Of a stretch of 64,000 bases of DNA, positions 34,796-40,526 are shown one piece after another. Made by a program: the position numbers and the translations under genes. The notes below the pieces were generated by a model that was not told the origin of the DNA, did not search any database, and worked only from the letters and a program-made list of their open reading frames with translations. Position 1 is the stretch's first letter. Each line of letters opens with the position of its first letter. Source of the stretch: a virus; IMG/VR virus record IMGVR_UViG_3300044612_001255, positions 44,292 through 108,291 of that record; one strand, 5' to 3'.

Positions 34796-37765
34796 ATGAA
34801 AGGATGGTTAGATAACTTTGGTAAAGCAGACAACGCTAATGATTCAAACGTTAGCCTTCCTGAAGGTTTTGTTGGACTAGGATATAACACTAAAGGAAGA
34901 AACTATTCTCCTGCATGGGGAGGACAGTTTCAAGGTGGTGGAAAACTTATTCCAGTTTCTCCAATGCAACAGATCACTGGCGAAACACCTACTATTTCCC
35001 CAACTGTCCCATATTTACAAACAAAAGATCCAGCAGAGTTTTATAAGTCTTGGATTCAAAGTCCTGAATATGAACGAAGATTAAAATCTACAGGATACTC
35101 AGATGTTCCTAATAAACAAAGGGTTGATGAACTTTCACAAATAGAACAGGTCAAAAAAGAAAGACTAGGACTTTTAGAAAATATTCAACCTTTAGAATAT
35201 GATCCATCTAAAAGATCTGAAGCTATAATTGATTATTACGATGGGTCAACTATAAATGTAAATCCTTCAGATTATAAAACCTTTTCTAAACAATCTGTTG
35301 AAGCACACGAAATTGCACATGTTGCCACTCCTACAAGTACAATGTCTAATGACGAGTTTGGAATTTTTATGGGATCTATGCTTCCTTTAAAAAAACCTAT
35401 AGTGTCTGGTGTACAAGGATCTAAAGAAAGAGAGGCTAGTAAAGAAGCTGTTGGAGATTTTGAACACTTGGGAAAACCATGGGAAGCAAAAGCTGATTTA
35501 GACGCTCTTCGATTCATGATGTACGACAAAGGCATCTATGATATTACAAAAGGAAAGAAGTTTACAGAATCAGATTTTGAAAAAGCAAAACAAAGTTTTG
35601 GGAAAGAAAGAGTTTTCAAAAGATTCACTGATAGAATGGGCAAGAAGAACTTTGTCAACTTGATGAACACTATTGCTAAAGCAGATGGTGAAGAAGAATT
35701 ACCAATGGCAATGGGTGGTATGTCTATTCCTGGTTCTGTAGGATTCACATACGCACGTACAGCTGGTTCTGCTCCTAGTAAAGGAAAGTATGCAAAGAAG
35801 ACGATGGCTTCTGCACAGAATGGTATTATGTCTCCAATGTTATTGGCAAGAAATGTTTTAAACTATTTCTATCCTAATGAAGAAGCTGCACCAACTGTAG
35901 AGGCAGCACCGTCAGACTATAAGAAGGGATTAACAAACGAGCTTCTACAAAGACAAGCATATAAAGAATCAACATTCAATCCAGCTGCTGTTTCCCCAGC
36001 GGGATACAAAGGTCTTACACAGATTGGAGAAGGTGTTTTAGAAGATTATTCTAATAAGAAAGGTGGAAAGAAACTAGATCCATTCAATCCAAAAGATGCT
36101 GTAGAGCTACAGAAGTTTGCAATGAATGATTTATACAATGCTAGCTTCATCAACAAACCTGATCAATCTGATAGTGTAAGAATTGCAAAAACTCTAGCTG
36201 CCTATAATTGGGGAAGAGGGAACCTATCTAATTATCTCAATGAACAAAAGAGTAAGGGTGTAGATATATATGATTCTTACGATTGGTTAAACAACCTTCC
36301 AAAAGAAACTAGCGATTATGTAAATAAGATTCTTCTCCAGGAAGATCCATCATTTAATAAGAACTATAAGAAAGCTTCTACAAATCCAAAATACGAAGAG
36401 GTGACATCTCTGTATGATCAGAAGAAGTTTGGTGGCGACATCCCTTCTGCACAGAATGGTCAAGAAATGAAATTCTATCAGAATGGATTGGATTGGAAAC
36501 CAAAGAGTATGCAGGATGGTGGAATAACTAAAGACAATCAAGGATATTGGAATCCAGAAAATTGGGGAAAGCCTGTAGAAATAGATTCTAATGACATAAC
36601 AATGGAAGGTGTATACGAACCCCTTCTTGGTGTGTCTGACACTGGTGACACTAAGCTAATGAAGCCAGGAAAGAATTATAAATTCAAGGGTAAGAAAGTT
36701 AGAGAGTATCCTGTAGCCCAGTATGGAAAAGGCATACCATTTAAAGATGCTGCTAATAATCCAAAAGATCCAGCAGATCCTATTCGTAAAGATTTGGCAC
36801 CACCTATTAGACCAAAAGCATCTTTTGAAGAACAGAAAAGAATAGCAAAGTTAGAACTTGATAAGTATGGTTATACATCAGACCAACGTAAGAATTACGT
36901 TAAAGGTAAATCTGAAAAAGCATTCAGGAATATTGTTCCTCAAGGATATGGAGATTTAACACAAACACTTGATAGAATTGATAGATATGAAAAAGATTTA
37001 GGAAGAGATCCAATGGAGACTCTATGGTATGGTTCAGAAAGTAGTTCAACAGGAAAACCAATATATTACGATCTTCCTAAAAGAGATGATGCTTTTGCTT
37101 TGTATCTAGGGTTGCCTCAAAAAAATAAAAGCTTTGGCATTTCTGAATATCAACCAGGCGATTCGAAAGAAAACAAATACTATTTCAAACCTAATTACTT
37201 AGATGAAAATTTAAAAAATCGTCTAGTTGCTTCATATTTTGACAATGTGGATGATAATGAAAATGTTTATATAGCAAATGAAAGAGGTGATGCTTTTCCA
37301 CAAAAAACTGATTCGTTGGAAAGGGAAGGAGTTCCTTTTGAAAATCCAATGTATGCTGAGTGGATGGTAGATAACCCTCTTGGAGATTTTAAAATGTCCA
37401 AGGGTAAAGATAAAAAGGGTCACTATATTTCTATTTATGATGAATGGGATTTGAATCCTTTTAAAGAAGGTAAAGGTTCATCAAGTAATCCAGCTGCTGC
37501 TACATTAAAAGCATTTGCTAAAATGAAAGGAGTAGACGTGAGTGATGACCTAGAAATTTCAAAGCTTTTTGGAGCTGGTAAACCTTTTGAGATATATGAT
37601 AGAATTTATTATGATCCAAAAACTAAAAAAGTGATTCCTGAGAAAAGAAATGGTGGTGGTGTGGGAATCAATCAATTAGATGCTCAACCCATGAAAAAAC
37701 TAAATCAATTACTTAACTTTACAAATAACCCAGACAAGGATAACTGGCTGGATAAATACAACTGA
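34796..37765 (+). CDS. multidomain cargo protein: zincin-like peptidase + SLT lytic transglycosylase + unknown domain
   Basis: HEIAH (35306-35320) with a downstream E. SLT motifs KESTFNPAAVS, GLTQI, LAAYNWG. Confidence 0.8.
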   Translation: MKGWLDNFGKADNANDSNVSLPEGFVGLGYNTKGRNYSPAWGGQFQGGGKLIPVSPMQQITGETPTISPTVPYLQTKDPAEFYKSWIQSPEYERRLKSTGYSDVPNKQRVDELSQIEQVKKERLGLLENIQPLEYDPSKRSEAIIDYYDGSTINVNPSDYKTFSKQSVEAHEIAHVATPTSTMSNDEFGIFMGSMLPLKKPIVSGVQGSKEREASKEAVGDFEHLGKPWEAKADLDALRFMMYDKGIYDITKGKKFTESDFEKAKQSFGKERVFKRFTDRMGKKNFVNLMNTIAKADGEEELPMAMGGMSIPGSVGFTYARTAGSAPSKGKYAKKTMASAQNGIMSPMLLARNVLNYFYPNEEAAPTVEAAPSDYKKGLTNELLQRQAYKESTFNPAAVSPAGYKGLTQIGEGVLEDYSNKKGGKKLDPFNPKDAVELQKFAMNDLYNASFINKPDQSDSVRIAKTLAAYNWGRGNLSNYLNEQKSKGVDIYDSYDWLNNLPKETSDYVNKILLQEDPSFNKNYKKASTNPKYEEVTSLYDQKKFGGDIPSAQNGQEMKFYQNGLDWKPKSMQDGGITKDNQGYWNPENWGKPVEIDSNDITMEGVYEPLLGVSDTGDTKLMKPGKNYKFKGKKVREYPVAQYGKGIPFKDAANNPKDPADPIRKDLAPPIRPKASFEEQKRIAKLELDKYGYTSDQRKNYVKGKSEKAFRNIVPQGYGDLTQTLDRIDRYEKDLGRDPMETLWYGSESSSTGKPIYYDLPKRDDAFALYLGLPQKNKSFGISEYQPGDSKENKYYFKPNYLDENLKNRLVASYFDNVDDNENVYIANERGDAFPQKTDSLEREGVPFENPMYAEWMVDNPLGDFKMSKGKDKKGHYISIYDEWDLNPFKEGKGSSSNPAAATLKAFAKMKGVDVSDDLEISKLFGAGKPFEIYDRIYYDPKTKKVIPEKRNGGGVGINQLDAQPMKKLNQLLNFTNNPDKDNWLDKYN
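35808..35824 (+). repeat. 17-bp direct repeat copy 1 (CTTCTGCACAGAATGGT)
   Basis: Identical to 36444-36460. Confidence 0.9.
36444..36460 (+). repeat. 17-bp direct repeat copy 2 (CTTCTGCACAGAATGGT)
   Basis: Identical to 35808-35824. Spacing is 636 bp, in frame. Confidence 0.9.

Positions 37766-40526: not shown

Follow-up and report, generated by a model that had tools for sequence, protein, structure and literature searches.

The 64,000-nucleotide stretch of viral DNA analysed here (the window throughout; IMG/VR record IMGVR_UViG_3300044612_001255, positions 44,292 to 108,291) is the late region of a complete 108-kb genome, that of an uncultured crAss-like phage, and contains two adjacent genes, gene 1 (P0001) and gene 2 (P0002), whose products are, judging from gene order and domain content, probably packaged in the virion. 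Comparison with relatives resolves gene 1 into a mosaic of constant segments and exchangeable cassettes, and the module borders at which relatives exchange modules are, as far as their sequences tell, short conserved peptides ending in glycine, which we call seams. With a probability of roughly 0.6, we consider seams to be uncut joints between modules that fold or dock independently, which double, together with the constant linkers, as homology for recombination. Gene 1 itself would be a virion-delivered cargo protein of the polyvalent type, built on a small constant carrier.

Gene 1 consists of a constant carrier and four slots

We compared gene 1 with its 119 best homologues (120 family members including P0001). 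This comparison separates a constant carrier of ~230 residues, made up of an N-terminal leader, two linker peptides, a 68-residue beta domain (the mini-domain) and a tail, from four slots, which in this phage hold a zincin (slot A), an SLT lytic transglycosylase (slot B), nothing (slot C) and an unknown 311-residue cassette (slot D). The parts are as follows, with positions in the window, residues in amino acids (aa) and a slash for the seam border within a peptide.

34796-37765, plus strand: gene 1 (P0001), 989 aa
34796-34942, plus strand: N-terminal leader, aa 1-49; begins MKG/WLDNFGK and ends with the seam FQGGG
34943-35719, plus strand: slot A, zincin cassette, aa 50-308; ends with the seam MAMGG
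35705-35824, plus strand: constant linker 2, aa 304-343 (MAMGGMSIPGSVGFTYARTAGSAPSKGKYAKKTMASAQNG); ends with the seam SAQNG
35825-36460, plus strand: slot B, SLT cassette, aa 344-555
36422-36523, plus strand: constant linker 3, aa 543-576 (KKFGG DIPSAQNG QEMKFYQNGLDWKPKSMQDGG), with KFGG, SAQNG and MQDGG as three successive seams
after aa 576, plus strand: slot C, empty in this phage
36524-36727, plus strand: beta mini-domain, aa 577-644; GG before it, E-Y-P-V-A-Q-Y-G at its end
36728-37660, plus strand: slot D cassette, aa 645-955; ends with the seam KRNGGG
37661-37765, plus strand: C-terminal tail, aa 956-989, ending N/WLDKYN; stop codon included

Among the 120 family members, the leader and the zincin are present in 103 each, linker 2 in 115, the SLT domain in 66, the mini-domain in 119 and the tail in 118. 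Slot C is filled in relatives by cassettes of ~360-910 aa, which lie between MQxGG and xKNGG. The linkers are conserved over 35-40 residues; linker 2 keeps 83-100% amino-acid identity to eight related loci, at a synonymous divergence (pS) of 0.07-0.33. In the full-length AlphaFold2 (AF2) model of gene 1, which has a mean predicted local distance difference test score (pLDDT) of 40.5 and is usable for the zincin only, linker 2 scores below 30.

A search with the mini-domain alone (E<=0.001) returned 2518 clusters at 50% identity; the proteins differ greatly in length, and the domain is usually separated from the C-terminus by 32-36 residues. GG stands before it in 103-110 of 127 representatives, and E-[YF]-P-[VI]-A-[KQ]-x-G closes it in 109 of 115. 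For a relative's mini-domain, a six-strand beta fold is predicted with a pLDDT of 79-94, and the predicted order begins and ends exactly at the seams. Structural comparison with the PDB (Foldseek, VIA-align) gave no convincing match for this fold, the best being cupin/CUB-like (Z 5.2), and crAss001 gp45, the cargo protein discussed below, was absent from the matches. Homology of the mini-domain to the portal-binding domain of that protein (C1) was considered and rejected at an hhalign probability of 0.2%.

The two ends of gene 1 match, with MKG-WLDNF at the start (34796-34825) and N-WLDKYN at the end (37742-37762). Of 247 relatives, 133 have the peptide WL[DNE][KN][YF] at the N-terminus and 227 have it no more than 10 aa from the C-terminus; in distant relatives it also follows internal GG seams, for example in ...KNGG/WLDKFEDGG/.... 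Some relatives carry a CxxC...CxxC zinc-ribbon module of ~35 residues upstream of MKNGG/WLNKY (L002:5887-8484; proteins P0131, P0132, P0136, P0296 and others), and the start of gene 1, MKG/WLDNF, is thus itself a seam.

Relatives exchange modules at the seams

The homologues of gene 1 are 588-1711 residues long, with blocks of 80-99% identity and unrelated inserts between them, and cassettes are gained, lost and re-ordered from one relative to another. BLASTP alignments to P0001 end in clusters on the final glycine of a motif, at aa 49/51 (11 alignments), 343 (41), 555/556 (15), 576 (45) and 644 (100), and start in clusters at aa 1, 305, 551, 573 (36 alignments, in linker 3) and 956. An earlier note on this DNA had described a recurring motif, A-x-x-G or x-x-G-G, placed each globular domain of gene 1 between two of its copies and taken the gene for a plug-in platform for interchangeable effectors. 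In an all-against-all comparison, we called a junction where one protein carries at least 40 extra residues and the other is continuous. Of the resulting 400 junctions, which are non-independent events, 94% have the motif in this earlier wording ending 0-5 aa upstream, compared with 9.4% of random positions; for a stricter pattern, the figures are 85% and 5.5%. Breakpoints of domain gain and loss in gene 1 thus do fall on the motif, the bracketing of the domains is confirmed, and the platform idea is well supported: close relatives share a short scaffold, and whole cassettes are inserted, deleted or replaced exactly at motifs.

Indeed, every common cassette is flanked by seams on both sides, as in FQxGG/zincin/AMGG, TMASAQNG/SLT/IPSAQNG, WKPKSMQxGG/variable/QQKNGG and EYPVAQYG/cassette/KRNGGG, and the extended peptides TMASAQNG, WKPKSMQxGG, E[YF]PVA[KQ]xG and QQKNGG are found again at both flanks of unrelated cassettes. 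Carrier segments and cassettes alike have seams as their ends, which are conserved and disordered; the pLDDT there is below 30, or the seam coincides with a border between order and disorder in the mini-domain.

The residue before GG in the seam peptides varies freely (N, D, G, P, E, K, M, A or I), which rules out self-cleavage at Asn-Gly as their function. An attempt to count cassette families by clustering the seam-cut segments was given up, since single linkage merged too much.

Narrower forms of the motif exceed chance

All 20 motif copies that had been listed for the two genes were found at their given coordinates, namely FQGGG (aa 45-49), MAMGG (304-308), SAQNG (339-343), KFGG (543-546), SAQNG (551-555), MQDGG (572-576), VAQYG (640-644) and KRNGG (950-954) in gene 1, and 12 of 12 in gene 2 (KAQMG, GKNG, KALFG, LAKNG, EAQNG, FAQQGG, MRDGG, LRAGG, FAMGG, QAKKG, KAQGG and TKNGG). 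KALFG lies within a stretch that is missing from 70% of relatives and is thus not a conserved seam.

One could argue that there is no motif at all, that Gly-rich low-complexity linkers yield A-x-x-G and G-G by chance and that alignments end where domains end. The loose pattern is in line with this view, being no commoner than in 5000 composition-preserving shuffles: A..G or GG sites number 14 in P0001 against 11.7 +/- 3.2 (p=0.28) and 27 in P0002 against 19.9 +/- 4.0 (p=0.05). Moreover, several GG sites fall inside conserved domains; the GG at aa 423-424, inside the SLT domain, matches the loose motif and is not a seam. An excess over chance can therefore not be claimed for A-x-x-G / x-x-G-G as first worded, but it is found for narrower forms, which we picked after the data had been seen. 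AQxG occurs 3 times in P0001 against 0.19 expected (p=0.0008) and 4 times in P0002 against 0.84 expected (p=0.013), and [FMYWLA][QRAK]xGG occurs 3 times against 0.43 and 4 times against 0.85, respectively. The window's other 30 open reading frames (ORFs; ~18,000 aa) contain 0 copies of AQxG, compared with the 7 in the two genes. Alignments that end on the exact motif glycine in up to 100 of 119 homologues, and extended peptides that flank unrelated cassettes and recur across the 2518 clusters, likewise contradict chance, as do the junctions, and we regard this explanation as excluded.

Constant segments carry a probable signature of recombination

An exact 17-nt in-frame direct repeat encoding SAQNG (35808-35824 and 36444-36460) brackets the SLT cassette, and 13 relatives show the fused, SLT-less junction TMASAQNG/QEMKFY. 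Compared with the eight loci, pS is 0.27 in the leader, 0.20 in linker 2, 0.28 in linker 3 and lowest, 0.14, in the tail, while both the zincin and the mini-domain reach 0.48. Where a residue is conserved, the same codon is used in 85.7% of cases in the constant segments, in 77.0% in the neighbouring 288-aa gene and in 71.8% in the zincin and mini-domain (pooled Fisher p ~1e-8; 5 of the 8 loci reach p below 0.05 on their own). Nucleotide identity reaches 90-100% in two islands, at aa 1-50 and 301-343, is 30-70% in the zincin core between them, and falls to 40-56% immediately behind aa 343 in sequences with another cassette there. Such islands of near-identical DNA point to homologous exchange with crossovers in the constant linkers. 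DNA microhomology within the 4-5-residue motif was also considered as the sole recombination site; the codons differ too much for this, and the longer constant linkers fit better.

Cassettes of gene 1

Slot A appears to hold a zincin-like metallopeptidase, for which the structural support is modest but consistent. The AF2 model scores ~70-87 over aa 73-295, HEIAH lies at aa 171-175 (35306-35320), and the top hits of the structural comparison consist entirely of zinc metallopeptidases, led by neprilysin, Zmp1 and PepO (Z 6.4-6.6), with PPEP, anthrax LF and ArdC behind them; the comparison with ArdC, made with regard to membership of the MPTase family, gave a Z of 4.5 only. HExxH is present in 110 of the 120 gene 1 homologues, and 4 of the 6 full-length, zincin-less exceptions have HExxH elsewhere. 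The cassette is absent or swapped in some relatives, with junctions FQxGG/.../AMGG, and it evolves fast, with a ratio of nonsynonymous to synonymous divergence (pN/pS) of 0.59.

Slot B matches the Pfam family SLT (PF01464, E=3.9e-11, aa 376-488), with the usual E-S motif present. A hidden Markov model of the slot D cassette finds 8 of the 120 family members; most relatives do without this cassette and read PVAKLG/INQLDA directly. It has no match in Pfam or PHROG, and in the ESM Atlas it matches unnamed viral clusters only, with leads to Colicin_M and DUF6402 below the trust threshold. Among the relatives, P0146, which is 76% identical over a shared N-terminal 58%, carries ART-PolyVal (PF18760, E=1.4e-12). 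A Pfam census of 32 diverse long relatives returned SLT only, and neither gene 1 nor a gene 2 profile matched anything when PDB sequences were searched.

Gene 2 and the cargo protein gp45 of crAss001

Cargo proteins of crassviruses have been described by Bayfield et al. 2023 (PMC10172136). In the Bacteroides phage crAss001, the muzzle gene is followed by those of the cargo proteins C1 (gp45) and C2 (gp46) and then by the virion RNA polymerase subunits (PMC10172136). The label cargo gene, which the earlier note had given to genes 1 and 2, fits both because their position matches that of the crAss001 cargo genes after the muzzle. The order here is muzzle, a 152-aa ORF, the 288-aa ORF, gene 1 and gene 2, and gene 2 comes next after gene 1 in all 8 loci; crAss001 differs in having no counterpart of gene 1 at this position. 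The parts of gene 2 are as follows.

37767-40526, plus strand: gene 2 (P0002), 919 aa, C1-like cargo protein
aa 1-41, plus strand: leader, ending KAQMG
aa 276-335, plus strand: Gly-zipper hydrophobic segment; weak DUF456 match at aa 282-335
aa 334-523, plus strand: conserved core with dense seams, collinear with gp45 344-498
aa 627-685, plus strand: variable region after KAQGG
C-terminus, plus strand: TKNGG followed by 8 aa

Gene 2 is more rigid than gene 1, and large insertions in its relatives lie at FAQQGG (aa 265), at FAMGG (aa 423) and after KAQGG (aa 629-648). With C1 of crAss001 it shares a position shortly downstream of the muzzle gene, a hydrophobic glycine-zipper segment, the collinear core and a C-terminus made of GG and a short tail. 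The sequence match itself is weak: BLASTP aligns gene 2 residues 334-523 with gp45 344-498 at E=0.023 and 25% identity, with the seams aligned, hhalign gives a weak 34% probability confined to the Gly zipper, and gene 2 has no match to PF25725 (crAss_CARG1) at E<=10, where gp45 scores 2.3e-66 in the same run.

The protein gp45 has seams of its own, of the form aromatic-x-x-GG (IFDTGG, FSAYGG, AFAEGGG, LKAFGG, WNAFGG, NTQGG, INEGG, MFAYGG, and KAKGG followed by the tail). Its residues 425-552 have been resolved on the portal by cryo-electron microscopy, and the protein was modelled as one chain from the capsid to the tail, partly unfolded, with separate modules docked to tail rings and portal (PMC10172136). 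The resolved part runs continuously through three seams (AFGG, TQGG and NEGG), and the helix 214-245, which is bound to tail rings R1/R2 (PMC10172136), is itself bounded by seams (AYGG/.../AEGGG). The description of crAss001 cargo in PMC10172136 mentions neither the seam motif nor cassette exchange.

What the seams may be for

The earlier note had proposed that the motif is a protease cleavage site or a capsid-loading tag, of which neither is favoured by the data. Against obligatory cleavage, seams are intact in the resolved gp45 domain, and no recognisable protease besides the zincin is present. Were seams proteolytic sites, the polyprotein would be packed whole via its carrier and cut after G-G or AQxG, either inside the capsid or once ejected, with the zincin cassette of the same chain or a protease of the host as the enzyme, so that individual effectors are freed. 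It is true that the motifs flank every cassette and lie in disordered linkers, that a zincin with intact HExxH occurs in 103 of 120 relatives, that both genes end in a seam and a short tail (KRNGGG and 34 aa; TKNGG and 8 aa), and that the zincin has been proposed to process polyvalent proteins (Iyer et al. 2017, PMC5512222). However, gp45 has seams while a Pfam scan finds no peptidase match in gp45 or gp46, and a cut at the seam three residues from the N-terminus of gene 1 (MKG/WLDNF) would be pointless. Conservation of the linkers far exceeds what a cleavage site needs, other cargo proteins do without the motif, and the fast-evolving zincin looks effector-like. Likewise, gene fission at seams was seen in none of the 8 related loci, where cassettes are never separate genes, and the complete 108,291-bp genome has no match to C39, C48, S78, retropepsin-like (Asp_protease_2) or ClpP peptidases; no protease other than the cassette zincin was recognised in it. 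Altogether, we regard cleavage at the seams as unlikely.

Still less likely, in our view, are short docking or loading tags that bind repeated sites in the particle (the inner face of the capsid, the portal or the tail rings) and carry in any cassette that they flank. Among the ORFs of the window the motif is confined to the two cargo genes, it is kept from this environmental phage to gp45 of the gut phage crAss001, it is the seam-bounded modules of gp45 that are seen on portal and tail rings (PMC10172136), and most of 247 relatives have matching WLD peptides at both termini, all of which would suit such tags. Yet in gp45 it is the helix and the folded domain in between the seams that are bound rather than the GG peptides, only the glycine is truly fixed, which makes a poor specific binding epitope, and the giant RNA polymerase proteins, assumed to be packed like their crAss001 counterparts, have no such motif. 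Indeed, no other cargo protein, these giants included, shows the seam motif in its enriched forms. In the 5054-residue ORF (43339-58503), these forms are absent and only a few loose look-alikes are present.

We favour uncut joints that double with the constant linkers as recombination homology. In the mechanism that we propose, a carrier whose two ends share the peptide WLD(K/N)(Y/F) would take exchangeable cassettes in its four slots. At the level of DNA, the seams and the constant linkers surrounding them would supply the homology for swapping cassettes in frame between co-infecting relatives. At the level of protein, the seams would remain as uncut flexible joints, so that each module can fold, unfold and dock on its own, and the seam-jointed chain could be stored and then threaded through portal and tail. 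By analogy with gp45, packaging or docking is likely to be the task of the constant modules between seams and not of the four-residue motif. What the sequences show directly is the mosaic build, the places of the seams and the conservation at the level of DNA; that the proteins are packaged, stay uncut and dock is inferred.

Several points weigh against this reading. A near-universal zincin in cis is what a self-processing polyprotein would carry, so some seams may be cut. The gp45 structure covers no more than three seams, in a distantly related protein with weak homology to gene 2 (E=0.023; no Pfam match), and packaging in this phage is deduced from gene order and domain content. As to recombination, the synonymous-site signal comes from short segments and from 8 related, non-independent loci, and could also arise from selection acting on RNA or on codon usage. 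Not every breakpoint lies exactly at a seam, identity to the loci L003 and L004 remaining high to ~aa 100, and the seam peptides are too degenerate in DNA to serve alone as recombination sites.

Genomic setting

The source record is a complete virus of 108,291 bp with direct terminal repeats, of which the window is the right-hand 64 kb. Upstream of the two genes, on the plus strand, Pfam identifies a P22-like portal protein, the crassvirus major capsid protein, tail ring proteins 1 and 2 and the muzzle. The muzzle is followed by ORFs of 152, 288, 989 (P0001), 919 (P0002), 922, 5054 and at least 1832 residues, the features outside the two genes being as follows.

28396-33456, plus strand: crassvirus muzzle protein (Pfam)
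33468-33926: Thr/Cys-rich ORF of 152 residues, between the muzzle gene and the 288-residue gene
40568-43336: ORF of 922 residues, after gene 2
43339-58503: ORF of 5054 residues, presumed from its size and position to encode the virion RNA polymerase
58503-63998: next ORF, 1832 residues visible

For gene 1, PHROG gives matches to endolysins and to families of 'internal virion protein with endolysin domain'. GenBank phages yield one distant SLT match for gene 1 and none for gene 2, and no cultured close relative was found among them. Metagenomes contain homologues in large numbers, more than 1000 for gene 1 and more than 2400 for gene 2, mostly unnamed; the 120 listed homologues of gene 2 are 56-100% identical.

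The 152-residue ORF is present in six related loci and missing from L003 and L004, where the muzzle gene directly precedes the 288-residue gene. The 922-residue ORF occupies the position of C2 (gp46), and both proteins begin MA(S/N)F; it has no match to Pfam crAss_CARGO2, even at E<=10, and its identity between loci is only 34-49%, while genes 1 and 2 of these loci are much more similar. There is no cysteine in gene 1, gene 2 or the 922-residue ORF. The 5054-residue ORF has a single one, at residue 5052, third from the C-terminus, and the ORF after it has one, at residue 4, within its visible part; the two lie close together where the ORFs meet (58492-58514).

Relation to known systems

Polyvalent proteins, known from phages and conjugative elements, are multi-effector, virion-delivered proteins, for which the zincin was proposed as processor (Iyer, Burroughs, Anand, de Souza, Aravind 2017, PMC5512222). 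Gene 1 resembles them as a large multi-domain protein in the late or virion block of the genome, with a domain architecture that varies strongly among close relatives and with presumed delivery together with the DNA. Where polyvalent proteins have 2-15 unrelated domains, the single 989-aa ORF combines the zincin (73-295), SLT (376-488), the mini-domain (577-644) and the slot D cassette (645-955). Signature domains are present as well, namely SLT, the zincin fold with its HEIAH and, in the relative P0146, ART-PolyVal; the variation in architecture extends to homologues of 588-1711 aa with cassettes gained, lost and re-ordered. The differences are that no constant carrier or junction peptides were described for polyvalent proteins, the word 'linker' occurring 0 times in the text of PMC5512222, and that most gene 1 cassettes match no known family.

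For the earlier statement that no such system has been described, the outcome is divided. It does not hold for the class, polyvalent proteins and crassvirus cargo both having been published, and it does for the junction peptides, on which we found no paper in cargo or ejection proteins. Nor did we find a published description of a constant carrier with slots, seam peptides and matching termini. The window contributes a map of the slots, shows how widely the mini-domain carrier is spread and gives evidence from synonymous sites that points to recombination within the linkers.

In polymorphic toxins, demarcation motifs such as VENN in CdiA and PxxxxDPxGL in Rhs mark a comparable border, a short peptide between a constant delivery part and interchangeable effectors that coincides with recombination breakpoints. 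There, each protein has a single toxin at its C-terminus, and an immunity gene comes next. In contrast, gene 1 has several internal slots, is constant at both ends, comes without immunity genes and is presumably delivered by the virion; its cassettes are internal, and the gene that follows its constant C-terminus is the conserved gene 2 in 8 of 8 loci.

African swine fever virus (pp220/pp62, with the protease pS273R) and adenovirus cut polyproteins at GG-X and encode a clan CE cysteine protease for this. GG-ending motifs at the module borders of internal virion proteins are common to these viruses and the phage, which differs from them in that its complete genome has no Peptidase_C48 match. 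No GG-specific cognate protease was found, and the sole candidate is the zincin.

Crassviruses are among the most abundant phages known, and among the cassettes of gene 1 and its relatives only SLT and one ADP-ribosyltransferase family are recognisable. The protein is a clear example of cassette exchange in frame within a gene, guided, as its sequence suggests, by conserved linker DNA. We also considered a bolder reading, in which seams, WLD(K/N)(Y/F) termini and constant linkers form a peptide code, used in thousands of crAss-like lineages, that loads arbitrary effector cassettes at defined places and ensures their ordered release, the zincin cutting at least some seams in cis after ejection. 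We hold this to be improbable; if true, it would be a natural plug-and-play platform for protein delivery. A constant carrier with defined slots makes it testable which of the peptides are enough for packaging, whether cargo is processed and how cassettes affect the host, and the carrier suggests a route by which foreign proteins may be loaded into such virions.

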